Shown one piece after another: positions 4,234 through 63,857 of a DNA stretch of 64,000 nt. The stretch's first letter is position 1; each line of letters opens with the position of its first letter. The translations under genes were made by a program, and so were the position numbers. This stretch comes from a virus (lineage: Duplodnaviria; Caudoviricetes): the IMG/VR virus record IMGVR_UViG_3300005673_000057, positions 11,041-75,040 of that record. One strand, 5' to 3'. The notes under the pieces were generated by a model. That model was not told the origin of the DNA. It saw only the letters and a list, made by a program, of their open reading frames with translations, and ran no database searches.

Positions 4234-4860
4234 ATGGCGAACACTTTCGCACCTTTCGGTTTCCGCTCTTTTGGCCATCAGGACGGCTCTGCGCCGACTA
4301 TGGGCCTTTCTCGCTATTTCATGCTGTCGAGCGACACCGCCGCGTGTTTCACGGGCGATGTGGTCGTTAACTCGTCAGCAAATTATGGCTACATCAATGT
4401 AGCGGTGGCTGGTCTCAATGCCACCATCAAGCCGCTTGGTGTATTCGCCGGGTGCGAATACTACAATTCCAACGTCCAGCGCAAAGTCTGGTCGCCCTAC
4501 TTCCCCGGATCGGTCGGCTCTTCCAGCCCTGTGACCGCATATGTCATTACCGACCCGGAAATGACTTACATTGCCCAGGCGAGCACCGGCACTGTGGTTG
4601 GTACGAGTCTTATCGGCCGAAACATCGCTTGGACGGTTGGCTCTGGCAATACCACTAATGGTCAGTCGGCTTCGTACCTTAATTCGAGCCAGACTGGTAC
4701 GGCGGCTTCGTCCTTTATCTGGCGCGTTGTCGATAGCTATTCGAACTTTGGCCCTCCGGGTGCCAATGGCACTTCTACCAGCGAAGGTGGCGGCATCCTT
4801 GTTGTCCAGCCGGTTGGTTGGATGCGCAATACTGTGACTCTGACGGGTGTGAGCACTTAA
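4234..4860 (+). CDS. Putative capsid decoration/cement protein, Ser/Thr-rich
   Basis: AGGAG RBS then ATG at 4234 (MANTFAPFGF...). GDVV and GVFAGCEY motifs, as in proteins that precede the major capsid gene in such phages. Confidence 0.6.
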   Translation: MANTFAPFGFRSFGHQDGSAPTMGLSRYFMLSSDTAACFTGDVVVNSSANYGYINVAVAGLNATIKPLGVFAGCEYYNSNVQRKVWSPYFPGSVGSSSPVTAYVITDPEMTYIAQASTGTVVGTSLIGRNIAWTVGSGNTTNGQSASYLNSSQTGTAASSFIWRVVDSYSNFGPPGANGTSTSEGGGILVVQPVGWMRNTVTLTGVST

Positions 4861-5822
4861 TGATCGCTACTGCCGCCCATATCGGATTTCTTGGCCCTCT
4901 TTCCCGGAAGAGCGGCCAAGATTTCGGCTGGGCTTTTTCCAGCGGCGACTTCGGCTGCTATCTTGGCTACGAGCGCCTCGTCGATCTTGTGCGGTCGTCC
5001 ATTAAACCAATCCTGAACATTTCCGGCCCTCGTAACCCATTCCAGATTCTCGGCTCTGGCGTCAGTCCTGTCTTCGTTCTTATGATGAACGGTATCAAGA
5101 CCGTTAGGATTAGGGACAAAGGCTTGGGCAACAAGTCGATGAACCAGAAAGGTTTTGGTGGAACCGTCCCTAGCAAGTTCGACTTTCGGGTAGCCGCTGG
5201 CGGCACCAAGTTCTCTAATTCTGGATCGGATGTGACGGTTCCTTCCGTGACCATCGTCGATGGTTCTAGGAAGGCTTGCGATGCGGCCCAAGTTGCTTAC
5301 TTGGTAGAGCCCCTCGTACCCCAGGATATCGCGCCACTCCTCTCCTTCAAGGTTCTCCATAACCGGGGTCAATTCGGGGAAAAGTTCGAAAACAATCTTT
5401 TCGACGTAAATCATCTTAGCTTTTCGGCTGTTTTGGATACCGAGGTAGGCGACAAGATATCCATTGTTTCTGGAAGTCTTAAGAATCTTCGCGCCGATAG
5501 CACGGGTAGCTCCGTGCAGTCCGTGCGCTGTGATCCTGCTGCCGCGCCTAACTCTGGCGTGACTGGAAACCTCGTAGCCAGCGTGGCCGGGGACTGGCTT
5601 CCATACCTCGCCCGGCTCGTTAAGCAGGGCCTCTGCTATATCTGGGAAAAGTTCGTTAACCTTGCGTCGCACATTGACGCGCAACCGCATTCCCATGCGG
5701 AACAGGTTAGCGCGCCCTCCGTCGAGCGGAAGGGTCTTACCACTAGAGTCTCGAACCTCCCCCTGGTCAGATATCAGGTAGTTCGGGGCTTCTGGGATCG
5801 GAAGCCATCTGGCTTCGATCAT
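4857..5822 (-). CDS. Free-standing homing endonuclease, NUMOD4 repeats + HNH
   Basis: Repeated E-x-W-K/R-x-I/V-x-G-x-x-G-x-Y-x-V-S units. HRLVAQAFVPNP...VHHKNEDRTDARAENLEWVT. Antisense within the late operon. Confidence 0.85.
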   Translation of the reverse strand: MIEARWLPIPEAPNYLISDQGEVRDSSGKTLPLDGGRANLFRMGMRLRVNVRRKVNELFPDIAEALLNEPGEVWKPVPGHAGYEVSSHARVRRGSRITAHGLHGATRAIGAKILKTSRNNGYLVAYLGIQNSRKAKMIYVEKIVFELFPELTPVMENLEGEEWRDILGYEGLYQVSNLGRIASLPRTIDDGHGRNRHIRSRIRELGAASGYPKVELARDGSTKTFLVHRLVAQAFVPNPNGLDTVHHKNEDRTDARAENLEWVTRAGNVQDWFNGRPHKIDEALVAKIAAEVAAGKSPAEILAALPGKRAKKSDMGGSSDH

Positions 5823-5856
5823 TTTTCCACCCTAGGTGCCGGTTGCTCATTAGCCA

Positions 5857-5885
5857 CACATACTGGTTTGTGTGGCGAATGTCAA
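5857..5885 (-). promoter_or_regulatory. Candidate promoter for the antisense HNH gene
   Basis: Minus strand TTGACA-N17-TATGTG, overlapped by an 8-bp perfect inverted repeat (5853-5876). Confidence 0.45.
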
Positions 5886-5926: not shown

Positions 5927-6841
5927 TTGCCCGTAGCTCTTTCAGCCATCCGTGATTTGTTGTTACCTGGCCTCTGGGGCATCAGTGGCCGATATCCCAT
6001 GATCGAGCGGCAGTGGCCGAGCATCTTCAAGCAGACCGACTCGAACATGGCCTTGGAGCGCAGGACTGCGGTGCGCTTCCTTGGCTTTGCCCAGCTAAAG
6101 CAGGAAGGCGCTCCCACCTCGTTCGATAACGCGGCTGGTCAGCGCTATACCTACAATGCTGAGCACTTTGAGATTGGTCTTGGCTACGCGATCACCCGCA
6201 AGGCCATTGACGACAATCTCTACAAGAGCGAATTCGGCCCCTCCAACGACGGCCTTATGGAGTCGTTCAAGGAGACCGAGGAAATCTACGCCGCGAACGT
6301 CTTCAATACTGGCACGACTTATAATGCCAATATTGGTGGTGACGGCGTGGCACTGTTCTCGACGGCGCATCCTATCGACCAAGCGACCATTGCGAATGAG
6401 CCGAACCCGGAAGTCGATCTCAACGAGACTTCTCTGCTCAACGCCTGCACTACCATTCGCGGTACGTGGCTTGATAACGCCGGTCTCAAAATCCATGCGC
6501 GTGGCCGCAAGCTGATCGTTCCTTACCAGCTTGAGCCCATCGCGATCCGACTGTTCCGCTCCGAGCTTCGGCCCGGTACGTCGCAAAACGATGTCAACGC
6601 GGTCATGCACATGAATGAAAGTCTTAAGGAAGGCTTCATGGTGTGGGATTATCTCACTTCGGCTTACGCATGGTTTGTGCTCACGAATCATGAAGGGTTG
6701 ATCTTCTTCAACCGCAAGCCGTTTGAGACGGACATGAGCGTTGAATTCACCACTGATAACCTGCTGGTAAAGGGATATCAGCGTTATGTTCCTACCTACT
6801 ACGATTGGAGGGCATGTTGGGGCACCTTCCCTGTCGCCTAG
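5927..6841 (+). CDS. Major capsid protein (TTG start)
   Basis: AGGAGGT RBS 5 nt before TTG; in-frame TAA at 5894 excludes an upstream ATG. 304 aa with strong high-expression codon bias (C-ending codons). Sequence pattern (RKLIVP..L, AWF, F-x-R-KP..MSVEF-T-N...Y-R) resembles Mu gpT-like capsid proteins. Confidence 0.8.
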   Translation: MPVALSAIRDLLLPGLWGISGRYPMIERQWPSIFKQTDSNMALERRTAVRFLGFAQLKQEGAPTSFDNAAGQRYTYNAEHFEIGLGYAITRKAIDDNLYKSEFGPSNDGLMESFKETEEIYAANVFNTGTTYNANIGGDGVALFSTAHPIDQATIANEPNPEVDLNETSLLNACTTIRGTWLDNAGLKIHARGRKLIVPYQLEPIAIRLFRSELRPGTSQNDVNAVMHMNESLKEGFMVWDYLTSAYAWFVLTNHEGLIFFNRKPFETDMSVEFTTDNLLVKGYQRYVPTYYDWRACWGTFPVA

Positions 6842-6912: not shown

Positions 6913-7425
6913 GTGAGCCTGACACAAGAGAGACTGATGCAATTGCTGGACTACAACAAGGAGACGGGTGAATTCCGCCGCAAGGTGCAGGCGGGGGCAT
7001 ATGACCGTTTTCCGGTTGGGGGCCTTGCTGGTTGGCTTAATAAAGAAGGATATCGGTATATCCGAATTGATGGACGGGTATACCGCGCATCTCGTTTGGC
7101 CTATCTCTATGTAACTGGCTTATGGCCAGTCGAGCAGATTGATCACAAGAATTGTGATACATCAGATGATCGTTGGGATAATCTTCGCCCGGCGTCTCAG
7201 TCCCAGAACAAACGAAATAACCGCCTGCGCAAAGATAGCAGCACTGGCTACAAGTGCGTGGTGTACGACAAGGCTCGTGACAAGTATCGCTGGCAGGTAG
7301 TCGTGGACGGGAAGCGCCGCAAGTCTGGCAAGCGATTTGACACCGCCGCTGAAGCCTTTGCTGACTATCAAGCCCGGCTCCCCGAATTCCATGGTGAATT
7401 CGCTAACGATGGAGGCCCTGTCTAA
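6913..7425 (+). CDS. HNH-AP2 homing endonuclease
   Basis: LTQERL..LL-Y..ETGEF, RLAYLYVTG-WP..QIDHKNCDTSDDRWDNLR; AP2-like C-terminus ending FHGEFA. Confidence 0.85.
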   Translation: MSLTQERLMQLLDYNKETGEFRRKVQAGAYDRFPVGGLAGWLNKEGYRYIRIDGRVYRASRLAYLYVTGLWPVEQIDHKNCDTSDDRWDNLRPASQSQNKRNNRLRKDSSTGYKCVVYDKARDKYRWQVVVDGKRRKSGKRFDTAAEAFADYQARLPEFHGEFANDGGPV

Positions 7426-8426
7426 TGGGTATCACTGCTCTTTCTGGGCCATTCCTCCAGTATGGAATCACGACCACTGGTTCCACTGATGGTCTGACCG
7501 GCCGAGATGTGGAATATAACGATCAGCGTGCTCCCATGCTTGCCGATCTTGGCAATGCCATGTTGGACCCGCGCACCTTTTACACTTATGCGCCTGGCGG
7601 CGCGGTAACCAACAAGGTCTACGGCTTCTACGGCGGCGTTGGCTACGTTGATTATCTGCCGCTTGCAGCGTCTTCGATTTCTATCGTCAATGACACTGGT
7701 AGCTCTGGAGATAGTGAGTTTACGCTTGTCACTGCCTCTTCGGCTCTTGGCACGTATTCCACGACTTTGATCGCTCCCGAGAGCGGGGTGACGCTCACCA
7801 GTGTCCTGACTTTGGATAGCTCTGACGACTCGTACATGGTCAACGCCTTCGGGCAGACTGCTACGGTCAATACTTGGGCCCCTGGTGGTGGTGCTGGTCG
7901 CTGCATTGCGGTATATACTGCTAGCTATAGTGATAGCCCTGTCACGGTAGAAGGCCGGGATATCTATGGCTATAAGATCAGCGAAAAGATCGACATTAGT
8001 TCGAATGGTTCTGTAACCTCGTCATTCGGTGGCATTGGTCAGAAAGCATTCAAGTACATTCTCGGGGTCTATAATAGCTCTGCCCCGACTAGCACTGGCA
8101 TTAAGGTCGGCACGACTAATCGGTTTGGCTTCCCGATGTATGTCCCATATTATGGGATGAATATCAGCGTCCAAGTCGCTTCGGTCGCCACGATCAGCAA
8201 TGCGCTAGTACCGCTGACTTCGGCCAACGCCATTCTTGGCTTGGCTTCGACGGCTACGGCTAACTCTACCAATGCGGACGTGCGCGGCATTTATATTTCA
8301 TCTGTCACGGCAGATGGTATATATCGCCTTCAAATGCGCGTCACTCCTGCGGCTTCGGCTGTTGTTACGATCTCTGCAACCAATGTGGCTCCGCTCTTTG
8401 GTGCTACGCAGTACAGCAGCTTCTGA
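7425..8426 (+). CDS. Ser/Thr-rich putative virion structural protein
   Basis: 333 aa, beta-rich, low charge; follows the capsid gene and takes its RBS (GGAGG) from the HNH 3' end. Confidence 0.6.
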   Translation: MGITALSGPFLQYGITTTGSTDGLTGRDVEYNDQRAPMLADLGNAMLDPRTFYTYAPGGAVTNKVYGFYGGVGYVDYLPLAASSISIVNDTGSSGDSEFTLVTASSALGTYSTTLIAPESGVTLTSVLTLDSSDDSYMVNAFGQTATVNTWAPGGGAGRCIAVYTASYSDSPVTVEGRDIYGYKISEKIDISSNGSVTSSFGGIGQKAFKYILGVYNSSAPTSTGIKVGTTNRFGFPMYVPYYGMNISVQVASVATISNALVPLTSANAILGLASTATANSTNADVRGIYISSVTADGIYRLQMRVTPAASAVVTISATNVAPLFGATQYSSF

Positions 8427-8635: not shown

Positions 8636-9274
8636 ATGCAGCCTATCGTTGTTACGAAGAATCTTAGTGCGGCATCTTCGGCTGGTATCGGCACATTCTC
8701 GTCAGCGGAAACCTCAGTAACGGTGAATTCCTCTTCGCTTGGGACTGCTAGGCGCATTGTTGTCTGGGGTTCTACAAGTGTAGCTACGACTTTCACCATT
8801 GTTGGCACGAATGGTGTTGGTCTTCCCATCTCGGAGGTTATAACTGGCTCTTCCGTTGGTGCGGCCGTAGCAACCACTCAGGACTTTCTTACAGTGACTT
8901 CTGTCACTCTTGGTGCGGTTGTGGCCAGTACGGCTGGTTACGTTGGGACCAACACTCAGGGCGGCACCCAATGGCAGATTATAGATACATGGCGCAACCC
9001 AATTAATGTTGGGTTCAATGTTACCCCAACCAGCACCTCTGTTGTGGCAAGCTTGGAATATACGATGGACTACCCATCGTATAGTACGGCATCTAAGTGG
9101 GCTGGCCAGAATCCAAATTCAGGGCCAGTAGCCGTGGTCTCTACTGCCTGCTCATCGGTTACTTCTGCTACCAACGGCAGCATTTCTTTCCCTTTTGCTG
9201 CTTGGAGGGTTACCCTTACGAGCACGTCGTCGGGGGCTGGGTCGGTTAATGCCACAATTGTCCAAAGTGGGTGA
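8636..9274 (+). CDS. Very Ser/Thr-rich putative virion protein
   Basis: 67 of 212 residues are S/T by manual count (about 32%); almost no charged residues. Confidence 0.6.
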   Translation: MQPIVVTKNLSAASSAGIGTFSSAETSVTVNSSSLGTARRIVVWGSTSVATTFTIVGTNGVGLPISEVITGSSVGAAVATTQDFLTVTSVTLGAVVASTAGYVGTNTQGGTQWQIIDTWRNPINVGFNVTPTSTSVVASLEYTMDYPSYSTASKWAGQNPNSGPVAVVSTACSSVTSATNGSISFPFAAWRVTLTSTSSGAGSVNATIVQSG

Positions 9275-9340: not shown

Positions 9341-10198
9341 ATGGGCAAGCTCACCCCCACATTCAAAGACCAACAGGCCGCCGCCAATGGCGGCATTCAC
9401 GTTATCCCTCCCCATGAGCCGCTCCCCGGCGAAGTGTGGGTCTCCTCTCCTGGAGAGGTCCTAGGCAAGAAACCAGAGGTGGAGGTGGTGGCAGAGCCAG
9501 CCCCACTTAAGGTTGCTTTAATTGGCACCGCGCCCTCCAGCCGCATGCTGGCTCCATTTAATGATCCTTCATGGCAAATCTGGGCGTGCTCGCCGGGTAA
9601 TCAGGGCCAGCTACCGCGTGTGGATATCTGGTTTGAGCTTCACGGCAATCTGCTCTGGCCAGAGAATATCTCCTACGGGGCTCCCTATCTGGAGTGGCTC
9701 AAGACCCTGACTATCCCTGTGATGATGCAGGACAATAAGCTGGTGCCGAATGCTACGCCATTCCCGATGAGGGAGATGGTGGATAAGTTCGGGCCCGACT
9801 TCTTCACCTCCAGCTTTGCGTGGATGATGGCCCTAGCCATTGACCGTGGGGCCAAAGAGATTGCCCTATTTGGCATAGATATGGCGTCGCGTGAGGAATA
9901 TATTCTTCAGAGGCCGGGCTTCTATTATTTCAAGTATCGGGCTGAGCAACTCGGGATTAAGGTGTGGGCCCCGAATGAATCTGATATTATGCAGTCGCCG
10001 GGGCTGTATGGATTCTCGGAGGTTACGCCGTTTGGCCGCAAGGTCTTGACGCGGAAGAAGGAGCTTCAGGATCGCGTCAATGCTGCCAAGCAGCAAATTG
10101 CTCAGTTGCAACATACAGTTACATATTTAGATGGTGCCCTCGAAGATATCGACTACGTGAGTCAAATCTGGGGTGGAGTGCAGAGACATGAAACCTAA
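9341..10198 (+). CDS. Putative CMP-nonulosonate-dependent glycosyltransferase (CstII/GT42, Maf/DUF115-like fold)
   Basis: KVALIGTAPS and FTSSFAWMMALAIDRGAKEIALFGIDM parallel the CstII motifs KKVIIAGNGPS and ITSGVYMCAVAIALGYKEIYLSGIDF (recalled from memory); C-terminal coiled coil. Confidence 0.55.
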   Translation: MGKLTPTFKDQQAAANGGIHVIPPHEPLPGEVWVSSPGEVLGKKPEVEVVAEPAPLKVALIGTAPSSRMLAPFNDPSWQIWACSPGNQGQLPRVDIWFELHGNLLWPENISYGAPYLEWLKTLTIPVMMQDNKLVPNATPFPMREMVDKFGPDFFTSSFAWMMALAIDRGAKEIALFGIDMASREEYILQRPGFYYFKYRAEQLGIKVWAPNESDIMQSPGLYGFSEVTPFGRKVLTRKKELQDRVNAAKQQIAQLQHTVTYLDGALEDIDYVSQIWGGVQRHET

Positions 10199-10337: not shown

Positions 10338-11921
10338 ATGTCACTAACCGTTACACATCCATTTGTTAGTCTGATTGCAGATAGCGGCAATACGTCGCTG
10401 GTGCAGCCGTCTGACTGGAATGACGATCATACTGTAGTTGGCGATGCTACTGCCACGACTGGCTATGTGTTGGTCGGTCAGGGGGCTGGTAGTGCGCCGA
10501 TCTGGTCCTCCAGCTTCCCCAGCATTATCACATTCCCAGATGGCGCAGTCGGCGCTCCCGGCATTGCATTTACCAATCAAACCACGACTGGCTTTTATCG
10601 TATTGGCTCTGGCAATGTTGGCCTTAGTCTTGCTGGCACTCTTTACTACAACTTCAATACTACGTCATTTTCCCCTGGAGCGAACGATCAGTTTTCTCTT
10701 GGTGTAAGCGGGACCGCGTTCGCTGATCTTTTTCTCGCTACTGGCGCGGTCATAAATTTTGGCGCTGGTAATTATGTTTTAACGCATTCTGCCGGGAATC
10801 TAGTTGCTACTGGGGGACCATTTACTGCCCCATCATTTATTCCATCTAGCTCGACGGTCCCGACGAATGGGATGTATTTGCCAGCGGCAAATACCATTGG
10901 CTGGGCCATTAATAGCACTGCTGAATTGCAACTGACTGCAAGCGCCTTGGCTCCTTCAACTACGGCTGGGCTAGATCTAGGAACAACATCCTTATTTTTT
11001 GGAACTGGGCACATAAATGCCATTTTAGCAGATGGTTCTGCTGGCAGAACTTGGCAGATAAATAGAGCCACAACTGGGGCTGGTCAGCAGCTTATTATCA
11101 GCGCTGGTGGGGCGCAATCTGGCGCTACTGACACAGCAGGCGGCGGATTACGACTTCGTGTCGGCGTTTCGACTGGCACGGCAAATACCGCTACCGCAGC
11201 CATTCAGCTTTACAAGCCGGGCGCGTCTGGTTCGTCCGACAACTCGATCTACAATGCGATCCTGTGTGCCTATACCGCCATCAATATGTCGGCGAACGAC
11301 AACGCGACGGCATGGCAGTTCAACGAGGCGGTCAACGGGAACGCAAGGTTTTATCTGAATATCATCCCGGTCGGCGCCGTCAATACGTCCGCAGGCTACT
11401 TCACCTTCTATGACAACTACGGTGACGGCTCGACCGGCTCTGCCAAGCAGGGCTATCAGCAGATCAATGGCATCGCCACCATCATCGGTGGCATGAAAAG
11501 GGTATCGTCGGATTTTGCCAAGACTTCTGATACCACATTGGCCAATATTACTGGGCTATCGATTAATGCTGCTGCCAGTAGGACCTATTTATTCGAGGCC
11601 ATCCTTTATACAACCTCAAATGTGGCCGGTGGCGTCAAATTTGCTATTGCGGGCACAGCCACTGCAACATCAATTGTTTATCAAGCCGTACTTTGGGATG
11701 GAGTTGGGACGGCAACGGCAGTTGGAACATCTAGGGCAGCAGCTTTGGCGACAACCGTTGGTGATGTTACGGCGGTAACTACCGCGTATGTGAGAATAAC
11801 TGGGACAATTACAGTGAATGCTGCGGGTACGTTAACGGTACAGTTTGCTCAGAATGCAAGCAATGGTGCCGCCTCTACGGTTCTGCGTGGTTCAACCTTT
11901 AATGTTTGGGAAGTAGTATAA
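10338..11921 (+). CDS. Tail fibre/spike-like virion protein
   Basis: N-terminal LVQPSDWNDDH motif, DGAVGAPGIAF-T-GFYR repeat typical of fibres; G/T/A/S-rich; mosaic codon usage. Confidence 0.65.
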   Translation: MSLTVTHPFVSLIADSGNTSLVQPSDWNDDHTVVGDATATTGYVLVGQGAGSAPIWSSSFPSIITFPDGAVGAPGIAFTNQTTTGFYRIGSGNVGLSLAGTLYYNFNTTSFSPGANDQFSLGVSGTAFADLFLATGAVINFGAGNYVLTHSAGNLVATGGPFTAPSFIPSSSTVPTNGMYLPAANTIGWAINSTAELQLTASALAPSTTAGLDLGTTSLFFGTGHINAILADGSAGRTWQINRATTGAGQQLIISAGGAQSGATDTAGGGLRLRVGVSTGTANTATAAIQLYKPGASGSSDNSIYNAILCAYTAINMSANDNATAWQFNEAVNGNARFYLNIIPVGAVNTSAGYFTFYDNYGDGSTGSAKQGYQQINGIATIIGGMKRVSSDFAKTSDTTLANITGLSINAAASRTYLFEAILYTTSNVAGGVKFAIAGTATATSIVYQAVLWDGVGTATAVGTSRAAALATTVGDVTAVTTAYVRITGTITVNAAGTLTVQFAQNASNGAASTVLRGSTFNVWEVV

Positions 11922-12893
11922 ATGACATTGCCAGCGCTTCTTACTCAAAATCCGGTCATAGGACCTTGGAATTACCTATCCATTGGATGTGGTCTGGAAA
12001 ACTGGTATGGCACGGGAACAAGTCAGGGTGGTATTTCCCTATATGCAGGGACGCCCGGAACAGTCCTATGGGTCGGACACGGGCAGGAGAATAATAACCC
12101 AGTTTATTTCATTACAACCGGAAGCCTGCTTTCTCCGCTTGTCCAGTATCAAACTTATTATGTCCGAAATAAAACACTGGACACATTTGAACTAGCTCTC
12201 TCGCCGGGTGGTGCATCAATCGCACTTACTGGCATTGCGGTCGGCTGGCATACGGCCCACTCCGATTGCACGCAGATCGTCTACACGCCGCCGAACTCGA
12301 CAACGGACACGATCTACAAGGTGATCTCTACTGGCGGCGGGGCGGGAGGTCAGAAGGGCAAGGGCGGGGGTGGTGCTGGTGCAACGGTCATCGAGTGCCT
12401 GTCGGGCATTCCGGCCAATACGCGATTGGTATTCATTAACGGCTCGGCTGGTCGCGGGACAGGCTTGGAAAGCTCGCCGGGCACGCCGTCCAGGGGCACG
12501 AATAGCACGCTGATCTATGGCGGTCCAGGACTGATCCCGAACGTCCCGACGAGGTTATGGGAAGCGACGGGCGGCAATCTCGCGATAGACGAGGCTGGCG
12601 GTCAGGGCGGGGACATTTCCGCTCTCGGCGGTCAGTACAATCTAGCTGACGGCACCGGGCCGTGCGTCAAGCAATCGTCGTGGGGAGTCAACGGCGGCAG
12701 CGGCACGAACTGGAGCACAAGCGGGACGCTCGGCGGCGCTTCTTATTGGGGTGGCGGGTTTAGCGGGGCTGATTTTCCGTCAGCAGCGGAGGGCGCAGGC
12801 GGCGGCTTTGATCCTTACGCGGCTTTGGGCGGCGTTGGATTTGAGGGCTATCATGGTAGAAACATAATTTGTGTTGTATATGGCCCCTTCTAA
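11922..12893 (+). CDS. Glycine-rich fibre-associated virion protein
   Basis: GGGAGG..GGGGGAG glycine-rich domain; N-terminal YYV-N-T-DTFELA-S-GG module. Confidence 0.55.
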   Translation: MTLPALLTQNPVIGPWNYLSIGCGLENWYGTGTSQGGISLYAGTPGTVLWVGHGQENNNPVYFITTGSLLSPLVQYQTYYVRNKTLDTFELALSPGGASIALTGIAVGWHTAHSDCTQIVYTPPNSTTDTIYKVISTGGGAGGQKGKGGGGAGATVIECLSGIPANTRLVFINGSAGRGTGLESSPGTPSRGTNSTLIYGGPGLIPNVPTRLWEATGGNLAIDEAGGQGGDISALGGQYNLADGTGPCVKQSSWGVNGGSGTNWSTSGTLGGASYWGGGFSGADFPSAAEGAGGGFDPYAALGGVGFEGYHGRNIICVVYGPF

Positions 12894-12913
12894 AGGAAAG
12901 GATAGCGTTTCAT

Positions 12914-13243
12914 ATGAAGCCAAAAATAGACTTCAACGCTAAATTCAAGGACTTAGACGGTAACGAAGTGAAGGACCGTCAGATGGGTCTTGACGGTAAG
13001 TTCACAGAGAGTGTGGCGACATTGGGGCGGGTGGCTGCCAATGCTCTTTTGGCTATGACCGATGAAGACAAAAGCATGACCGGGGAAACCAAGGTCAAGC
13101 GCTATGATCTGGCGATGCGTGTTGTCAAGGGAGAGACTTCCCTGAAGGCAGAGGAGATTGCGGATATTAAGGCTGCCATTGGCAAGCACTATACGCCGCT
13201 GATTGTAGGGCAGGCTTGGAAGATGCTTGATCCGGGCGAATAA
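12914..13243 (+). CDS. Conserved phage protein, possible fibre assembly chaperone
   Basis: MKPKIDFNAKFKDLDG...TLGRVAANAL...KVKRYDLA...IGKHYTPLIVGQAW pattern, downstream of fibre genes. Confidence 0.5.
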   Translation: MKPKIDFNAKFKDLDGNEVKDRQMGLDGKFTESVATLGRVAANALLAMTDEDKSMTGETKVKRYDLAMRVVKGETSLKAEEIADIKAAIGKHYTPLIVGQAWKMLDPGE

Positions 13244-13467
13244 TGGCAAACCGAGGAGCCAGAGTCTCTATTATAGAACTGGCTCCCGTTTACTCGGCAC
13301 TATCCGGTATAGAAACGGCATTTCCTGGTTTTAATGGGGCATTTCAGGTAGATGCATTTAACAGAAATGCATTCTGGACTGGTTCTGCCGCAGATTCCGG
13401 TCAGGCTACTGTATCTATTATTGAAATAAGGCCAGTATTTGCTAATATCAGCGGCATCGAGAGCTAA
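13243..13467 (+). CDS. Small virion protein with internal duplication
   Basis: VSIIELAPVYSALSGIET and VSIIEIRPVFANISGIES flank AFQVDAFNRNAF. Confidence 0.5.
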   Translation: MANRGARVSIIELAPVYSALSGIETAFPGFNGAFQVDAFNRNAFWTGSAADSGQATVSIIEIRPVFANISGIES

Positions 13468-13482
13468 TGGGGGTGCCGGGGG

Positions 13483-13767
13483 ATGCCGATTAATGTCCTC
13501 GAAGGGAATTCGGTAAAATTCGTGGTGGAGTTTATCTCCAGCGCCACCGGAAACCTTGTCTCCCCCACATCGGCCTCCATAACGATAGATTATTACGTGT
13601 CCGGCGTGGCGACTTCCACGACAATTACCCTAACCCAAGAAAACAGCTTCTGGACAGCCACATGGAGTAGCGCTGGTGCCGATCTTGGTCTTGTGACGTG
13701 GAGCACGGCTTCGTCTGAGACCACTAATCCGGCAGCCACTGGCGATCTCCGTATCATCGACCCATAG
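13483..13767 (+). CDS. Small Ig-like virion protein
   Basis: Alternating beta-strand pattern, Ser/Thr-rich, GGGG RBS. Confidence 0.45.
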   Translation: MPINVLEGNSVKFVVEFISSATGNLVSPTSASITIDYYVSGVATSTTITLTQENSFWTATWSSAGADLGLVTWSTASSETTNPAATGDLRIIDP

Positions 13768-13776
13768 GGGGCTTAA

Positions 13777-49112: not shown

Positions 49113-49140
49113 GTCGCAAGTCTCCCGATTGCGTTCTCAG

Positions 49141-49169: not shown

Positions 49170-49177
49170 GGGACAAA

Positions 49178-49203
49178 CGCTAGGCGCATTGGCGCGCCTA
49201 GCG
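49178..49203 (-). terminator. Terminator after the MoxR-like ATPase
   Basis: Perfect 10-bp stem CGCTAGGCGC/GCGCCTAGCG followed by TTTG on the minus strand. Confidence 0.55.
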
Positions 49204-49210
49204 ATAGGAT

Positions 49211-53320: not shown

Positions 53321-53395
53321 TGGTCCGAGTGGCAGGAATCGAACCTGCATGATCTCGCTCCCAAAGCGAGTGATCAGCCATTGACCCACACTCGG
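53321..53395 (-). tRNA. tRNA-Pro(UGG)
   Basis: CCGAGTG/CACTCGG acceptor, A73, encoded CCA; anticodon arm CTCGC-TT-TGG-GA-GCGAG; T-arm GCAGG-TTCGATT-CCTGC. Confidence 0.95.
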
Positions 53396-53399
53396 TAGC

Positions 53400-53474
53400 T
53401 GGTTGCGGGGGATGGAATCGAACCATCCACCTCTGGCTTATGAAACCAGCGCTCTGCCACTGAGCTACCCCGCC
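53400..53474 (-). tRNA. tRNA-Met(CAU) with fMet-like acceptor (Ile2 not excluded)
   Basis: GGCGGGG/CCCCGCA acceptor with 1:72 mismatch; D-arm GCTC/GAGC; CTGGT-TT-CAT-AA-GCCAG; T-arm GATGG-TTCGATT-CCATC; encoded CCA. Confidence 0.9.
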
Positions 53475-56327: not shown

Positions 56328-56591
56328 ATGAAGATGGACGAAGCCATTGAGATCAAGAAGGGTAGCGACTGTCCAAACTGCGGCGAGCATCTTGACGCCT
56401 GCTCTGGTGTAGAAGCCCACGGCAAGGCCCCCTCTCCAGGCGATATCACTGTCTGCCTGTACTGCGGCCATCTGATGGCCTTCACCGACATTCTTGGCTT
56501 GCGTGTTCTCACCGAAGCAGAACTCAACGAAGTCTCGGATGATCCACGCATTATGGCGATCCAAGCGGCACGAAAGGATATAGGGCTATGA
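56328..56591 (+). CDS. Zinc-finger protein (CPNC...CLYC)
   Basis: CGGGAG RBS; P-PGD.TVC..CG.L..F...L.R motif. Confidence 0.6.
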   Translation: MKMDEAIEIKKGSDCPNCGEHLDACSGVEAHGKAPSPGDITVCLYCGHLMAFTDILGLRVLTEAELNEVSDDPRIMAIQAARKDIGL

Positions 56592-57148
56592 TTGTGGGAT
56601 ATATGCGTGTTTCCACTCATGGTCAGGACATGGCGCTCCAGAAGGATGCGCTGGAAGCCGCTGGCTGTGAGAAAATCTTCTCCGATGTCATGTCCGGTGC
56701 AAAGACTGATCGCCCCGGCCTCGATGAATGCCTGAAATTCCTACAAAAAGGAGATACCCTTGTTGCATGGAAACTTGACAGGGTTGGCAGGAATCTCCGA
56801 CACCTCGTTAATGTGGTACACGATCTTAGTGATCGCGGTATCGGCTTCCGCATTCTTACTGGTCAAGGAGCCGCCATCGACACGACTACCCCTGCTGGGA
56901 AGCTTGTATTTGGGATATTTGCTAGTCTTGCTGAGTTTGAAAGGGAGCTAATTCGTGAGCGCGTCAATGCCGGTATCAAGGCGGCCAAGGCTCGTGGCGT
57001 CAAGTTCGGCCACAACTCCGTAATTACACCGGATATGATCGAGGCAGCTAAGACTTCTTCCGTGCGCTCGGTCGCGAAGTCTTACGGGGTTTCAAAGAGC
57101 GCCCTTTATTCCGCTTTGGGAAACGAAGATCGGCGCATTTCCATATGA
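56588..57148 (+). CDS. Small serine recombinase (resolvase/invertase, Hin/Pin family)
   Basis: GYMRVST..QD..Q...L...GC..IF-D..SG...RPGL...GDTLV-WKLDR-GR; AEFERELIRER...G..FG; C-terminal HTH. Confidence 0.92.
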   Translation: MIVGYMRVSTHGQDMALQKDALEAAGCEKIFSDVMSGAKTDRPGLDECLKFLQKGDTLVAWKLDRVGRNLRHLVNVVHDLSDRGIGFRILTGQGAAIDTTTPAGKLVFGIFASLAEFERELIRERVNAGIKAAKARGVKFGHNSVITPDMIEAAKTSSVRSVAKSYGVSKSALYSALGNEDRRISI

Positions 57149-57525: not shown

Positions 57526-58035
57526 TTATCCTGATTTCATATACTCTCCATAATGGAGAGATGCTGCTTGGCAATAAGCCTCATGAGCCTCCTCAGCGGT
57601 AAGAAAGTATCCTAAAGATATTTGCTTACCGTCATTGGCATAGATATATGCTTGGAATTTCTTCTTTCGCTTGTGATCATTTTTCTCGTACACCCCTTTG
57701 TAGCCTAGACGATTATTACATGGCGTAGTCCTGTTCCAGCTATTTTTCTGACTCGTGGCCTCACGTAGATTGGACCAACGATTATCATGTCAAATATTAT
57801 TGCAATGATCGATTTGCTCATCTGGCCAAGTTCCAGTCATATAGAACCATGCGAGCCTGTGCGCTAAGTATTTTTGTCCATATATCCATACTCGGATATA
57901 CTTATTTCTATCGGGTGCTCCAGCTAGTCCTCCACTTCTGGCTCTGCCGCGATTCTTGCGCCATTTGAACTCGCCAGTCTCTGGACTGTATATGAGATAT
58001 TCACGCAGCTTTTCCTGCGTCAATTCTACGGACAT
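57526..58035 (-). pseudogene. HNH-AP2 endonuclease with in-frame TGA in the HNH motif
   Basis: ...QIDHCNNI*HDNRWSNLREAT...YKGV...SLGYFLTAEEAHEAYCQAASLHYGEY. The stop is at 57790-57792 and the frame continues 88 more codons. Confidence 0.85.
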
Positions 58036-59149
58036 ACGCCTCTCCGACTTTATCGAAGGTATCCTTGATCTGCCGCCTCTGAGTTGAACTAGGGTCGTAC
58101 CCGCATACCTCAAAAGTACACAAGGATACATTATGAAGATGCTCAGCAGTTGGACAATGAGTTTTATATTTGCTAAAAGCCGGGAGATGATAAAGTGGCT
58201 CCACATACCCATAATTCATGGGTACACCCTCTGCTCTCATTGCCTGCACGAACCACTGGCGCTCTCGCTCCACAGTCAGCGCCCACATATAGTAGGCATG
58301 GTCGCAGTCCTCGCGAACCAGCGGCGGCACCAAGCCGGGATAATTGACAACGCACTCAGTCAAAAACTCAGCTAGCTCTCGCCTACCCTCTACCAGCCTC
58401 TTGACCTTGTTGAGTTGGGACAGACAGATCGCGGCCTCAACTTCGGTCATGCGAAGATTAAGCCCCACCGGATAGCCAGCAAGCTCCCCATGATTCCTAG
58501 CCATACGCATAGCATCATCAAGCTTAGGATCATCAGTGAGACAGACTCCACCCTCGCCGCATTGTATGTGTTTATGGCAATTAAAAGAAAAAACACCAAT
58601 GTGACCGATAGTTCCCGCATACTTCTTGCCCTCTCGTGCTAACCATCCCTGTGCATTGTCTTCGATCAAGAATGCATATCCACTCCTTATCTGATTGGAA
58701 TATAATGAAGGATGCCCAAACAGATTAGTTGTGATAACTACGTCTTCCTTATGCCCGCGCCACTCTTCCTGAGTAAATGTCTTTGGCTCCACATCGCAGA
58801 AGTTTATGTTTGCACCTAGAAAGGCCGGAGCCGCCGCAGTCGCGCTCATGGTAAGAGCGGGGACGGAAACGCAGGTTTCCTTCGTTACTCCACAGGCCAT
58901 ACTTGCAATGAGAAGGCCCGAAGTGGCACTGTTACACGCAACCGCGTACTTCGAGCCAAACATCTCGCACATCTGTTGCTCTAGCGCCTGCACCATGAGG
59001 CCGCCATTGCGCTGACCGCCCAGGAAGCCACTCAAGAAACCTCGTTTTATGACCCCAGTGGCTGCGGCAATTTCTTCTGGTCCAATACTATTATAAGGTC
59101 GCAGCGGGCTACTAACGGCAGGTTTCCCCCCATTGATCGCCAGAGTCAT
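58001..59149 (-). CDS. DegT/DnrJ/EryC1/StrS sugar aminotransferase (PseC-like)
   Basis: YAVACNSATSGL, FLIEDNAQG, GVFSFNCHKHIQCGEGG (PLP Lys), NLRMTEVEAAI. Confidence 0.9.
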   Translation of the reverse strand: MTLAINGGKPAVSSPLRPYNSIGPEEIAAATGVIKRGFLSGFLGGQRNGGLMVQALEQQMCEMFGSKYAVACNSATSGLLIASMACGVTKETCVSVPALTMSATAAAPAFLGANINFCDVEPKTFTQEEWRGHKEDVVITTNLFGHPSLYSNQIRSGYAFLIEDNAQGWLAREGKKYAGTIGHIGVFSFNCHKHIQCGEGGVCLTDDPKLDDAMRMARNHGELAGYPVGLNLRMTEVEAAICLSQLNKVKRLVEGRRELAEFLTECVVNYPGLVPPLVREDCDHAYYMWALTVERERQWFVQAMRAEGVPMNYGYVEPLYHLPAFSKYKTHCPTAEHLHNVSLCTFEVCGYDPSSTQRRQIKDTFDKVGEAYVRRIDAGKAA

Positions 59150-59772
59150 AGCAGCATTCCTTTTTGTTGAGCAAAAACGATGGGGTCTAGGGCTCTCTTT
59201 TTGAGATTACAGTCTGGACAAGTTGCTTGGATATTGGTTCTATGATTGGTGCCGCCCCCAGCTAGAGGAACAATGTGATCCACATGAAACTGTTGGCCAA
59301 GAATTTTCCTGCGACAATATGCGCATCTTCCTTTTTGCATCTGCAATATCTCTGCCAAGTCATATTTTGTAAATCTTCCAGGAGCATTCCGCCGTCTTGC
59401 GCCTCTCGTCTTCCACTTTAGTATAGCTTTTTCTGGATGCTTCTTGACATACCGCTTGCCGTACTCGGATAATTTTTCCCTATTCCTATCATTCCATTCT
59501 TTATAATAATCTGGTCTCCTCTCTCTGAATTTTCGCATTTTTTCGCGCTGCTTATCTTTGCCGCCCTCGTAGTAATATTTCTTTCCCAAATCTCTGACGT
59601 GCTGTGGGTCTCTCGCTCTATATCGGCGCACAGCATACTTGCGACAGTCGATGCATGAAAAGTTGTTCACCATTCGATACGTGACGTGCCCCATAGGGCA
59701 CTGTTTCCCGGTAAAATACATTCTCAGTCCAAGTCTGATCGCCTCCTGACGGCTGACCTTAGGACCCAGCAC
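59146..59772 (-). CDS. HNH endonuclease (Cys4, McrA-like C-terminus)
   Basis: YFTGK-CP-GH N-terminus; CAYC...HVDHIVPL..GGTN...NIQ-TC..CNLKK. Confidence 0.85.
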   Translation of the reverse strand: MLGPKVSRQEAIRLGLRMYFTGKQCPMGHVTYRMVNNFSCIDCRKYAVRRYRARDPQHVRDLGKKYYYEGGKDKQREKMRKFRERRPDYYKEWNDRNREKLSEYGKRYVKKHPEKAILKWKTRGARRRNAPGRFTKYDLAEILQMQKGRCAYCRRKILGQQFHVDHIVPLAGGGTNHRTNIQATCPDCNLKKRALDPIVFAQQKGMLL

Positions 59773-60612: not shown

Positions 60613-61485
60613 CTAACCCAATGCGGGCAGCTTGTCAAGCATGGAGCGTAGCTCTTCCACCGAAAGTCTGCGCGCAACGTCGCTGGTATTGCCGTGGTCC
60701 ATGCCCTCGTGGAGCTTTTCGTATTCTGGGAGACCAACAATCTCCATTTTAGCACCCATGGCCTCGGCCAAGTCACCAAGCCTGAATGCTGGCAATATGG
60801 GAATGGCAGGCTTGGATTGTGGCATGGTCTTCAGCGTGTTTAGCACCAAGTCCACAGCCTCGTCAGCCCACATCCAGAAGCGTGTCACCTCGGGGTCGGT
60901 CACGCGCACGGTATCCGTCACCGTTAGCACTTCACGCCAGACCGGAATGACCGAACCTGTAGACCCTGCCACATTACCGTATCTGGTAACTGAGTATCGT
61001 GGCCCACCCCAACCCCTAGTATTGTTAGCAGCCAGCACGATCTGCTCTCCCAGAGCCTTGGTCAGCCCATAGGGCGAGACTGGCTGAAACGCCTTATCGC
61101 TCGATAGATAAACTACCTTCTTGACCCCAGCATCTTTCGCGGCCTCCACCACATTGACCGTGCCATCCACGTTGGTCTTCACCATTTCTGATGGATTATA
61201 GTGCCCCACCTCAATGCGCTTCAGCGCCGCAGCATGCACAACGACTTCAATGCCCTCCATGGCCCGGCGCAAGCGCTCACGATCCCGTACATCGCCAATC
61301 AGAAAGCGCAGAGAGCCTGCCTTATCCAGGCTCCATAGCTCCTTGTTCATGAGGAATTGGCGGTATTCACCACGAGACAGAATGACAATCTTGCGCGGAG
61401 GCTTTTCCCAACTGAGGAGTCTTCGCACCAGATGGTTTGCGAAGAAACCAGAGCCGCCAGTTATGAGGATGCTATCAAATCCCAT
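60613..61485 (-). CDS. pseB: UDP-GlcNAc 4,6-dehydratase (PseB/FlaA1-like)
   Basis: ILITGGSGFF, I-ILSR-E..Q, LRFLIGDVRD..RL..AM-G..VVHAAALK, KTNV-G..NV, SSDKA..P...YG-TKA, TRYGNV-GS-GSVIP. Confidence 0.85.
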   Translation of the reverse strand: MGFDSILITGGSGFFANHLVRRLLSWEKPPRKIVILSRGEYRQFLMNKELWSLDKAGSLRFLIGDVRDRERLRRAMEGIEVVVHAAALKRIEVGHYNPSEMVKTNVDGTVNVVEAAKDAGVKKVVYLSSDKAFQPVSPYGLTKALGEQIVLAANNTRGWGGPRYSVTRYGNVAGSTGSVIPVWREVLTVTDTVRVTDPEVTRFWMWADEAVDLVLNTLKTMPQSKPAIPILPAFRLGDLAEAMGAKMEIVGLPEYEKLHEGMDHGNTSDVARRLSVEELRSMLDKLPALG

Positions 61486-61534
61486 GATAATGCAGTCCCC
61501 CTCTCAATATCTTTTGCAGCTATACGAAGCAGTT

Positions 61535-61930
61535 TCATCCATAGATCGTTGTTTCTTCTGCGGATTTTTGTGATTTTTTCAATTGTGTCCATTTCTTATG
61601 CCTGCTGCGATATTGCGCCATACGCCATTGTCGATAATCTGGTGCTGAATAATATCGGGCAAGCCATTCCCCACAATTCAGCAGTCTGCCAATCTGTGAG
61701 TATGATACATTCAGAGTCCTGAGATACCTCGATATCTCGATCTTGCAATCCAGTAAAGTGCCAGTGGCTCTGGCCATGGTCCTGACTTCAACAAGATCGT
61801 GTCCATACTTGTCCAGTATGGCCTGTACCCCGTCCTCATAGTCGGCGACGGACAGAGACCGCCACGGAGTCCCTCTGCGCAATGGAGCCGTCTTCGATTC
61901 CTGCTGCGATAGATCGTAGAGTATTGTCAT
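61535..61930 (-). CDS. Putative HTH protein (DnaA C-terminal-like); start uncertain
   Basis: EISRYLRTLNVSYSQIGRLLN helix-turn-helix; overlaps the end of the upstream gene. Confidence 0.4.
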   Translation of the reverse strand: MTILYDLSQQESKTAPLRRGTPWRSLSVADYEDGVQAILDKYGHDLVEVRTMARATGTLLDCKIEISRYLRTLNVSYSQIGRLLNCGEWLARYYSAPDYRQWRMAQYRSRHKKWTQLKKSQKSAEETTIYG

Positions 61931-63857
61931 ACGCTCGCACCACTCGCTTGATTTCGTTGTCCCGATGCATGAAGCCCAGATTGTTGCTATTGATTATCAG
62001 GACCCCGTTCTTTGCCATTTCTTCTCTAAATAAAGCTGCGATCTGACTGCCTCGCGCTTCGCCTGCATCCTCAAAACTAAATCGGGTGAGCCCTTGCAGA
62101 TAATGGCACACCATAGGAACATCGTGCTTGAGAATAAGGCGGAACATCTCGCCGTTGAGAAAAGCATTCTGGCTACGAATAGTCTCCACCACATTCTTTC
62201 TCTCCAGTTTATCAATACAGGCTATCGCAGCCGCGATACTAAGGCACTCGCCTTGGAATGTGCCAGAGTAGAAGATATTATCCGGCGGCTCCATCAAGCT
62301 CATGATATCGCGCCTGCCGCCAATGGCACTGATCGGCATCCCATTGGCCATGGCCTTAGAGATGCATGTCAAGTCAGGCTTGATGCCAAAGTGGCCCTGA
62401 GCCCCTCCCATGCCCCAGCGCGGCCATGTGATGATCTCGTCAAAGATCAGAATGGCGCCAGTCTCGTCGCACACATCGCGCAAGACCTGTAGAAATTCTG
62501 GATTGTCTTCCGGCTCTACGATGACACAGGCGTAATTTTCTGTTTTGATTTCTCGGATGGCATCTTCACAGTCGCCATGTTGTAGATTTCGTGCGAAAAT
62601 CCGAAAAGCAGCAGGAACGCCGCGACCACGATCACCAAAATCGCCAACAAAATCAGACCCCCAACCATGGTAACCACTGCTAAGAATGCCAGCACGCCCA
62701 GTATGGGCACGAGCAAGACGAACAGCAACAGTCGTAGCATCTGAGCCATTCTTCCCAAACCTCACCATCTCCATAGAAGGCAGGTGACCCTGTATTCGAG
62801 TCGCCAGTTGCCATTCTAATTCGGTTGCAAGGGAGAGTGTAACGCCGGAATCTAGTTGAGTGCGAACGGCGCGGTCAACGTCAGGATCGCGATAGCCAAG
62901 TATGACAGGCAAAAGCCCAGCCATGCAGTCCACGTACTCATTGCCGTCAATGTCATAGATGTAAGCACCGTCGCCATGCGAGACAAAACGCGGCGACTCT
63001 CCTGGAAATTGCACATAGCTCTTGGAGAACGTCTGTGCGCCAAGGGGAATGATCTCCCTTGCCCGCGCAAGAGCCTTCTCGGAGCGCGGATATGAGTACG
63101 TTCCTAGCTCTTCACTGTTAATGCCCTCATAGAAACGCTCATTTCGTGGGTGATGATTGTTGATGAAGCGAAGATTTGGCTCCTTATCGAGGATATTCAA
63201 GATATCTAGGTAGGAGCCATTCCAGTTCGACGGCAGTCTCTCGGCGATTTTCTGACAAAACTGCATGTCGTTGAGGGTATCGAGTACCCAGCGCTCCTCA
63301 TGCAGCCCTGGAATGGGGCAAGTCAGGGTCGCAGACTTAAATCTGGACCTGTTTCTTGCCATAAATCGCGTCACACAGTCGCGATCTGACCCCCTAGTGG
63401 CCTCCTTGTGCGCGATTTCCAGTAATTCCCGTGAGAAAATCTCAACATCGAGGCCATCCGGCCATGTCGGAGGGTCAATATTAGACGCATACTGCGCTCC
63501 AGCAGTCTTTCTGAGGCGAATTACCTCGCCAATGACCTGCGGATCGTGAAATGGGCAGTCGCCAGTGAGACGAAGCAGAAAATCAGGCTTGAAGTCATCC
63601 ACAACCTGCATAAATCTTGAAATAACATCGCTTTCGGAGCCGATAACTCCACGGATTCCCCACTCCACACTTTTATTTACAATAATGTCGTCGCTGGGCT
63701 GGTAAGACGTTGCCACAATCACCTCATCCACACCCGGCGCAGCTTGAGCGGCGTCAATGACCCATTTTAGTACGGGCTTGCCATTAAGGTTTTGGAGGAC
63801 TTTTCCTGGAAGACGCGAAGAACCCATCCTCGCCTGTATGACTGCTACCGTCTTCAT
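61836..63857 (-). CDS. SpsF/PseF-type cytidylyltransferase fused to class III (GSA-like) aminotransferase
   Basis: IQARMGSSRLPGKVL...RLTGDCPF-DP...WPDGLDVE...RW-LDT..D; then GAQTFSK...G...YD-DGNEY-D...FGKNGSDAT..AVRLAR..TGR...LIFDEI...SKAMANG-PISA. Confidence 0.88.
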   Translation of the reverse strand: MKTVAVIQARMGSSRLPGKVLQNLNGKPVLKWVIDAAQAAPGVDEVIVATSYQPSDDIIVNKSVEWGIRGVIGSESDVISRFMQVVDDFKPDFLLRLTGDCPFHDPQVIGEVIRLRKTAGAQYASNIDPPTWPDGLDVEIFSRELLEIAHKEATRGSDRDCVTRFMARNRSRFKSATLTCPIPGLHEERWVLDTLNDMQFCQKIAERLPSNWNGSYLDILNILDKEPNLRFINNHHPRNERFYEGINSEELGTYSYPRSEKALARAREIIPLGAQTFSKSYVQFPGESPRFVSHGDGAYIYDIDGNEYVDCMAGLLPVILGYRDPDVDRAVRTQLDSGVTLSLATELEWQLATRIQGHLPSMEMVRFGKNGSDATTVAVRLARAHTGRAGILSSGYHGWGSDFVGDFGDRGRGVPAAFRIFARNLQHGDCEDAIREIKTENYACVIVEPEDNPEFLQVLRDVCDETGAILIFDEIITWPRWGMGGAQGHFGIKPDLTCISKAMANGMPISAIGGRRDIMSLMEPPDNIFYSGTFQGECLSIAAAIACIDKLERKNVVETIRSQNAFLNGEMFRLILKHDVPMVCHYLQGLTRFSFEDAGEARGSQIAALFREEMAKNGVLIINSNNLGFMHRDNEIKRVVRAYDNTLRSIAAGIEDGSIAQRDSVAVSVRRRL

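Follow-up and report, generated by a model that had tools for sequence, protein, structure and literature searches.

A Maf/CstII-fold transferase candidate beside the capsid genes and a pseudaminic-acid-type sugar operon in a tailed phage suggest virion glycosylation

Results

A transferase candidate and a sugar operon in one phage genome

The stretch of DNA analysed here (the window, 64,000 nucleotides) comprises bases 11041-75040 of the 75,040-bp IMG/VR record IMGVR_UViG_3300005673_000057, which has direct terminal repeats and is rated 100% complete. It belongs to a tailed phage with no close cultured relative, its large terminase subunit (TerL) being at most 40% identical to that of any deposited phage. 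A first-pass annotation of the sequence had proposed that this phage makes a sialic-acid-like sugar (nonulosonate) activated with cytidine monophosphate (CMP) and attaches it to its own particle. Two parts of this putative system are described here, a transferase candidate encoded among the head genes and an operon related to pseudaminic acid (Pse) synthesis, with their folds, gene content and linkage across lineages. The genes in question are listed below (positions are those of the window unless given as genome positions).

9341-10198, + strand: candidate transferase of the Maf/CstII (GT42) fold, 285 amino acids (aa), unnamed family (AlphaFold2 model, Foldseek, VIA-align)
58001-59149, - strand: PseC-like sugar aminotransferase of the DegT family (DegT 9.3e-53)
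60613-61485, - strand: PseB-like uridine diphosphate N-acetylglucosamine (UDP-GlcNAc) 4,6-dehydratase (Polysacc_synt_2, Pfam 4.5e-70)
61836-63857, - strand: N-terminal SpsF-type cytidylyltransferase (CTP_transf_3) fused to a class-III aminotransferase resembling glutamate-1-semialdehyde (GSA) aminomutase (Pfam)

Pfam and NCBIfam matches confirmed the PseB-like, PseC-like and SpsF-type genes that the first reading had placed at 58.0-63.9 kb. The best NCBIfam match of the dehydratase was PseB (TIGR03589, 272.7 bits, under the cut-off of 407.75), and that of the aminotransferase was PseC (TIGR03588, 152.4 bits, under the cut-off of 423.5; the LegC-type model gave 132 bits). The two domains of the fusion protein scored 6.1e-25 (CTP_transf_3, 88.7 bits) and 7.3e-46 (class-III aminotransferase); the cytidylyltransferase domain reached 31.6 bits with the PseF model TIGR03584 (cut-off 205.7) and a higher score, 73 bits, with KdsB-type models. 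This fusion, of about 680 aa, is kept in 13 of 14 related records.

The operon is longer than the window shows, because it spans the origin of the genome, which is circular. Read in the direction of transcription, it starts with a GNAT acetyltransferase gene (genome 4065-4631) and the genes for a 335-aa and a 209-aa protein, continues with a formyltransferase, an S-adenosylmethionine (SAM)-dependent methyltransferase, a 93-aa protein and a GFO/IDH/MocA oxidoreductase (genome 85-957), and ends with the fusion protein, the PseB-like gene, an inserted HNH endonuclease gene and the PseC-like gene. The presence of oxidoreductase, methyltransferase and formyltransferase genes implies that the sugar is a tailored derivative. 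The 335-aa protein was also examined as a possible hidden synthase or PseG, and the ESM Atlas gave a poor model and, as matches, uninformative viral clusters only.

The 9341-10198 product is predicted to have a Maf/GT42-type fold

Sequence searches with the 9341-10198 product gave no family in Pfam-A (hmmscan, E <= 0.01), no PHROG match and no significant name among PDB sequences. It has at least 853 close homologs (60-80% identity) on contigs of about 75 kb, and its family falls into about 4,130 clusters at 50% identity, almost all from metagenomes; neither homologs nor prophages were found in the bacterial genome contigs searched.

An AlphaFold2 model built from 30 homologs (mean predicted local distance difference test score, pLDDT, 72) showed a Rossmann-type core at residues 52-219, mostly above 80, together with a disordered N-terminus of 50 residues and a long C-terminal helix (residues 232-277); no membrane segment was visible. 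The top Foldseek matches of this model were the sialyltransferases CstII, Cst-I and PmST (E 2.5e-5 to 9e-4, probability 1.0), with CstII (1ro7) at E 2.5e-5 and a TM-score of 0.40-0.47. In VIA-align, run on 48,161 chains, the flagellin glycosyltransferase Maf (5mu5; Z 10.6, 153 residues, root-mean-square deviation 3.1 A) and Cst-I (2p56; Z 10.6, 154 residues, 3.4 A) came joint first. Thus, the sialyltransferase-like fold proposed at first reading was upheld when the model was set against CstII, Maf and GT29-type structures.

The two hallmark motifs noticed then, KVALIGTAPSS and TSS...EIALFGIDMASREEY, proved to be invariant in the family. Across the 30 homologs, the residues G62-T-A-P65-S66-S67 and T156-S-S...G178-I-D180...E186-Y187 do not vary; among 126 diverse members, G62, H101, G178, E186 and Y223 are invariant and S157 and D180 are at least 90% conserved. 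A family profile searched against PDB sequences matched, besides coiled coils, only GT42 sialyltransferases, weakly (E 0.3-0.9). Its alignment to 9c08 and 1ro7, at an E-value of only 0.3-0.9, falls at the TS...EI.L.G.D...E.Y segment, where the second motif pairs with the TSG...GIDFY...Y segment of CstII/PmST and Y187 comes near Tyr162 of CstII. In CstII, we take His188 to be the catalytic base and Tyr156 and Tyr162 to bind phosphate; Arg129, by the same assumed numbering and our reading of the motif alignment, is not conserved in the phage protein.

No relevant Pfam domain, including PF01973 (Maf), was found in any of the 126 diverse members. A six-frame search of the genome with PF01973 at E <= 10 gave nothing, with positive controls in nine genomes; that with PF06002 (GT42) also gave nothing, a result that is uninformative because the control was silent too. 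The modelled structure confirms the predicted fold but not membership in the GT42 and Maf families of Pfam, and 9341-10198 represents an unnamed family in the same fold class.

The disordered N-terminal extension (residues 1-50, window 9341-9490) has the motifs LTPTF...NG...PHEPL.GE, which are kept in the 75-kb family with T5 and T7 invariant. In the wider family, most members begin at about residue 57 and lack it; the extension could be a docking or capsid-targeting peptide. One metagenomic member, P0242 (504 aa), has its transferase domain fused to an N-terminal region of 270 residues with a weak match to PhyH (E 0.0014), a 2-oxoglutarate- and Fe(II)-dependent oxygenase, which hints at hydroxylation-coupled modification in some lineages.

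Transferase genes are linked to CMP-sugar genes across lineages

We compared the gene content of two sets of genomes: 14 related IMG/VR records, 10 of which are at least 90% complete, and a more diverse set of 20 records of 24-94 kb that hold a family member, 8 of which are at least 90% complete. CTP_transf_3, DegT and NeuB were each found in all 10 of the more complete relatives, while in the diverse set CTP_transf_3 was found in 7 and NeuB in 6 of the 8. Taken together, the transferase and the cytidylyltransferase co-occurred in 17 of 18 near-complete genomes. For rough comparison, only 1 of 50,697 deposited phage records has a match to this type of cytidylyltransferase. The outgroup, a circular 61-kb phage (MW202675.1) whose annotated major capsid protein (MCP) is 64% identical at the aa level to that of the window, has neither the transferase nor the cytidylyltransferase.

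The two parts are contiguous in a divergent lineage (L061 and L062) whose transferases are 32-33% identical to the one studied here. There, a single strand carries in order the portal, a scaffold or protease gene, the MCP, a small protein and two tandem transferase paralogs, followed directly by PseB-like, DegT, WbuX amidotransferase, HisF2-like, CTP_transf_3, methyltransferase and NeuB genes; the PseB-like gene at 60613-61485 shares 61.5% identity with that of this lineage. Furthermore, a natural protein of 492 aa (P0263) consists of an SpsF-type cytidylyltransferase fused to the transferase domain, and its N-terminal domain is 42% identical (E 5e-37) to the cytidylyltransferase domain of the present phage. 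The coupling of the transferase to a CMP-nonulosonate pathway, which the first-pass annotation had drawn from one genome, is thereby backed by co-occurrence, contiguity, fusion and joint absence in the outgroup.

The fold alone does not decide between a glycosyltransferase and a pyrophosphokinase, and it is this comparative genomics that separates them. The linkage to cytidylyltransferase and NeuB genes and the fusion suggest that a CMP-sugar would be the donor, and we consider it likely, with fair confidence, that 9341-10198 is a CMP-nonulosonate transferase.

Several observations concern the sugar and the spread of the family. In L061, WbuX (12721-13779; N-acetyl sugar amidotransferase, above cut-off) is accompanied by a WbuZ/HisF2-like gene (14693-15451), and an acetamidino-modified nonulosonate is therefore predicted there, in contrast to the formyltransferase and methyltransferase of the present phage. 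Among deposited phages, a homolog of the transferase was found only in Microcystis phage Mvi-Yong1342-1 (32% identity). Its gene (PP496355.1 34781-35584; L002:5902-6705) lies directly upstream of the small terminase gene, and the label that it carries, 'type 11 methyltransferase', is probably a mis-annotation.

The condensation step is missing from this genome

All 10 complete relatives have a NeuB-type synthase; in relatives, its gene closes the operon and directly follows DegT. Three of these synthases exceed the PseI equivalog cut-off (395, 384 and 379 bits versus 340.25), so the earlier assignment to a Pse-like family was right. The earlier proposal that the phage makes the CMP-activated sugar by itself did not stand: a six-frame PF03102 search of the complete 75,040-bp genome, with positive controls, found no NeuB/PseI, and tblastn with the synthases of four relatives (E <= 50) found no remnant, the best E-value of 0.13 being noise. 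Of the other pathway enzymes looked for, the GNAT enzyme is PseH-like in kind; no PseG/Glyco_tran_28 match was recognised by Pfam or NCBIfam among the operon proteins of the genome and its relatives, no dedicated PseG profile search having been run. Because PseI is absent, the phage's own pathway is incomplete, and either a host synthase is borrowed or the system is impaired. The relatives are predicted to make a Pse-type sugar, and this member appears to have lost the condensation step with its other operon genes intact. Two features lie at or near the place that PseI occupies in the relatives.

57526-58212, - strand: split or truncated HNH endonuclease in the PseI slot of the relatives (phrog_99 2.8e-29, truncated HNH_3, layout of the open reading frames)
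56588-57148, + strand: small serine recombinase of the resolvase/invertase type (N-terminal MIVGYMRVSTHGQD), near the PseI position of the relatives

The recombinase may mark a mobile insertion tied to the loss of the synthase. One complete genome of the diverse set (G028) likewise has the cytidylyltransferase and no NeuB.

Candidate acceptors in the head module

The transferase gene is surrounded by structural genes, several of which encode proteins rich in Ser and Thr.

4234-4860, + strand: Ser/Thr-rich (23.6%) protein just before the capsid gene, candidate head accessory protein and candidate acceptor (conserved in 39-40 related loci)
5927-6841, + strand: MCP (phrog_371; identity to the annotated MCP of MW202675.1 as given above; 12.5% Ser+Thr)
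7425-8426, + strand: Ser/Thr-rich (23.4%) all-beta protein after the capsid gene, 333 aa, candidate acceptor (in 24 related loci)
8636-9274, + strand: Ser/Thr-rich (31.6%) small protein immediately upstream of the transferase, 212 aa, candidate acceptor (composition, related loci)
10338-11921, + strand: Ser/Thr-rich (22.4%) fibre-like protein of 527 aa immediately downstream of the transferase (composition)

The transferase lies on the structural strand, inside the head/packaging block, in all three genome architectures examined: it follows the capsid gene in two of them, and in the third it precedes the portal gene by 2-3 kb or comes immediately ahead of the terminase genes. The compositions reported earlier for 4234-4860, 7425-8426 and 8636-9274 were confirmed, the three values exceeding the genome-wide 12.4% with z = 5.1, 6.1 and 8.5, respectively. 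The use of this enrichment as support for virion glycosylation failed in a correlation test set in advance, because in MW202675.1 the richness does not track the transferase: this phage, with no transferase, keeps proteins of 24-27% Ser+Thr after its capsid gene, and its homolog of 4234-4860 has 17.6%. In the window itself, seven other virion-module proteins are equally Ser/Thr-rich, and values across the structural module reach 20-30%. We therefore rejected Ser/Thr richness as evidence of glycosylation.

The Ser/Thr-rich neighbours evolve fast (median identity 41-44% among relatives, versus 79% for the MCP) and are gained and lost, a pattern typical of exposed accessory proteins. For 7425-8426 (median identity 41%; AlphaFold2 predicted TM-score, pTM, 0.76), the fold had no PDB match and BFVD gave only uncharacterised phage proteins. 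The C-terminal part of 8636-9274 is homologous to a 103-aa protein of MW202675.1, and its structure search returned only unnamed viral clusters. The fibre-like protein 10338-11921 had no homolog in the flanking regions of the relatives.

Other features of the genome

The structural module runs on the + strand, with TerL at genome 6280-7938 and the portal at genome 9302-11875, and its neck, tail and fibre genes reach to about 28 kb of the window. Homing-endonuclease genes (HNH, HNH_3+AP2) are abundant and placed between essential genes, one copy being the split or truncated one described above. One lies after TerL (L001:7874-8413, + strand), another is found between the pre-capsid gene and the MCP and is read in the opposite direction (4857-5822, - strand), and a third separates the MCP from the next head gene (6913-7425, + strand). 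The copy inserted in the sugar operon is as follows.

59146-59772, - strand: HNH homing endonuclease between the PseB-like and PseC-like genes (Pfam HNH 1.7e-12; phrog_1035)

A small terminase candidate (Terminase_2) at 50988-51560 (+ strand) scored 26.5 bits against the Pfam cut-off of 26.1; it lies about 24 kb from TerL across the origin, an unusual separation if real. A DUF7192 protein (48213-50449, - strand) adjoins an AAA_5 (CobS/MoxR-like) ATPase that PHROGs labels 'porphyrin biosynthesis', and another AAA ATPase lies at 43547-44980. Genes for tRNA-Pro(TGG) and tRNA-Met(CAT) lie side by side at 53321-53474 (- strand).

Discussion

The best explanation as a whole, to which we assign a probability of about 0.5, is that a phage-borne Pse-type operon and a Maf/CstII-fold transferase act together to glycosylate virion proteins. 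In such a pathway, the PseB-like dehydratase and the PseC-like aminotransferase would convert UDP-GlcNAc into a 4-amino-4,6-dideoxy sugar, which would then be N-acylated by the GNAT enzyme or the formyltransferase, condensed with phosphoenolpyruvate by a PseI-type synthase (in this genome, a host enzyme might take that step or the system might be impaired) and activated to the CMP-sugar by the SpsF-type cytidylyltransferase. Tailoring of the sugar would fall to the GFO oxidoreductase, the methyltransferase and the class-III aminotransferase that is fused to the cytidylyltransferase. The transferase, expressed late with the head proteins, would finally move the sugar in the cytoplasm from CMP to Ser/Thr of particle proteins, the likeliest acceptors being the fast-evolving head-associated proteins beside it. 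We infer O-linkage of the sugar, and we see the chances that the protein also decorates the virion as evenly balanced.

This system would work like a flagellin glycosylation island, with its Pse pathway and Maf, moved into a virus beside capsid genes. The Maf flagellin glycosyltransferases (PDB 5mu5, PF01973) have the same central fold as the modelled 9341-10198, and the Maf and Pse/Leg flagellin islands of Campylobacter, Helicobacter, Aeromonas and Magnetospirillum likewise hold PseB-, PseC-, PseH- and PseI-like genes together with a cytidylyltransferase gene. By analogy with Maf, the phage protein is expected to be soluble and cytoplasmic and to act on Ser/Thr of a self-assembling surface protein, and the tandem transferase paralogs of some phage lineages recall the multiple maf genes of bacteria. 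Unlike Maf, a multi-domain protein of about 600 aa that has helical domains at both termini, the phage protein has 285 aa, no PF01973 match and no flanking domains, and carries instead a disordered N-terminus and one long C-terminal helix; the aligned part is confined to its residues 52-219, which pair with 269-499 of the Maf chain (632 aa). Moreover, it is virus-encoded beside capsid genes, and its presumed acceptor is a virion protein and not flagellin.

With the GT42 enzymes CstII and Cst-I of Campylobacter jejuni and PmST of Pasteurella multocida (PF06002; 1ro7, 2p56, 9c08), its best Foldseek matches, 9341-10198 shares a G-x-x-P-S nucleotide loop and a T-S-x...E-I-x-L-x-G-I-D...Y motif, yet it is only 14-18% identical to them and has no PF06002 match; furthermore, GT42 enzymes sialylate lipooligosaccharide (LOS), not proteins. 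Compared with the bacterial CMP-pseudaminic acid pathway (PseB, PseC, PseH, PseG, PseI, PseF), the phage operon has PseB-like, PseC-like, GNAT and cytidylyltransferase genes. It differs in three respects: this genome is without PseI, and PseG was not recognised; the cytidylyltransferase, which forms one protein with a class-III aminotransferase, is SpsF/KdsB-like and no PseF equivalog; and the GFO oxidoreductase, methyltransferase and formyltransferase are additional.

The proposed glycan coat on the phage particle has a parallel in actinobacteriophages. Mycobacteriophage capsid and tail-tube proteins are reportedly glycosylated by phage glycosyltransferases, as Freeman and co-workers are said to have described in 2023. 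Actinobacteriophages use ordinary GT-A/GT-B enzymes and host nucleotide sugars for this purpose. Transferase genes beside structural genes and a proposed particle glycan coat are common to both cases, but the likeness is one of outcome only, since here a Maf/GT42-fold protein is paired with a phage-borne nonulosonate pathway. No description of nonulosonate-based virion glycosylation by a phage was found in the literature searched.

Several points weigh against virion glycosylation by this system. It is gene position alone that points to virion proteins as the acceptors, and the Ser/Thr-rich proteins of the transferase-less MW202675.1 remove what composition might have added. The PseB-like, PseC-like and cytidylyltransferase proteins all score under their NCBIfam equivalog cut-offs, and the pathway is further thinned by the missing synthase and the PseG that was not recognised. 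Family members also occur with no sugar genes in Mvi-Yong1342-1, G015 and G020, of which the first and last are complete; such phages could draw on host CMP-sugars. In the enzyme itself, we identified no counterpart of the CstII His188, the equivalent lid region having no His, while the invariant His101 follows the third strand. Finally, the fold is common to the hydroxymethylpterin pyrophosphokinase (HPPK) MptE (Z 9.7), SteA (Z 8.4) and thiamine pyrophosphokinases (TPKs; Z 6-8).

Some of these points bear on the target. The transferase might use a CMP-nonulosonate and act away from the virion, either on host lipopolysaccharide or LOS, capsule, flagellin, pili or S-layer, with receptor masking or superinfection exclusion as the result, or on a non-structural phage protein. 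Of its closest solved relatives, CstII, Cst-I and PmST do act on LOS and Maf on flagellin, the Ser/Thr richness of its neighbours is not specific to transferase-bearing phages, and some homologs precede terminase genes and do not lie beside capsid genes. However, surface-conversion genes of phages usually occupy lysogeny or moron positions, whereas the transferase gene sits on the late structural strand, in the head/packaging block, in every architecture examined. Its product appears soluble in the model, and apart from the small serine recombinase no recombinase was seen, nor was a lysogeny module of the integrase type noticed. We regard a target outside the virion as unlikely, though the best placed of the alternatives.

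Other points bear on the state of the pathway in this phage, which might be decaying or host-dependent, with a transferase that is idle or uses CMP-Pse or CMP-Kdo (3-deoxy-D-manno-octulosonic acid) of the host. The absence of NeuB/PseI with no remnant, the broken HNH gene and serine recombinase in its place, the similar state of G028 and the homologs in phages devoid of sugar genes all fit this explanation. Against decay, all other pathway genes and the transferase have intact frames and keep the family-invariant residues, which argues for continued selection and would fit a host-supplied synthase. We find such a state quite unlikely overall.

The shared fold also leaves room for an enzyme that is not a glycosyltransferase, such as a pyrophosphokinase or another MptE/TPK/SteA-fold enzyme, with only an indirect association to the sugar genes; neither the GT42 nor the MptE-like Pfam model matches, and the catalytic base was not identified. 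Yet sialyltransferases and Maf came first in both structure searches, sialyltransferases were the only enzymes matched by the profile, and the P0263 fusion and the contiguity with the NeuB operon fit a user of CMP-sugars and not a pterin or thiamine kinase, which makes this option very unlikely. Least probable of all, and rejected because the enabling enzymes are absent from the genome, is attachment of the sugar to phage DNA as a base hypermodification: it would have a precedent in phage glycosyltransferases that put sugars including a Kdo-like ulosonic acid on 5-hydroxymethylcytosine (bioRxiv 10.1101/2023.12.21.572611), and it would suit a genome rich in homing endonucleases, but the DNA glycosyltransferase described there has a GT-B fold unlike that of 9341-10198, the present genome has no thymidylate-synthase-like hydroxymethylase and no TET/JBP dioxygenase, the only DNA methyltransferase recognised is of the MT-A70 N6-adenine type (38421-39071, + strand, 2.5e-28), and the transferase gene lies among head genes, not replication genes.

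Virion glycosylation by a phage-borne Pse-type operon and its transferase may also extend beyond this genome. Judged from genes and models, phages of this kind probably coat their own particles with sugar. With somewhat more doubt than conviction, we propose that the widespread unnamed family is the phage counterpart of Maf, and that O-linked sialic-acid-like sugars are put on the head proteins or fibres of many uncultured tailed phages with the help of a phage-borne pathway of the pseudaminic or legionaminic type. If true, such a modification of virions, so far unknown outside actinobacteriophages, would differ in its chemistry from theirs, and it would define a compact new family of nonulosonic acid transferases, of which few are known. 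Tailed phages of soil and water would then be routinely coated, from their own genes, with bacterial sialic-acid-like sugars, and it would become clear why sugar 'auxiliary metabolic genes' belong to the core genes of these phages. Such a coat would change the view of particle surfaces, with consequences for adsorption, stickiness to mucus and biofilms and mimicry of host flagella or capsules, and would bear on the evasion of grazers, antibodies or host surface nucleases.

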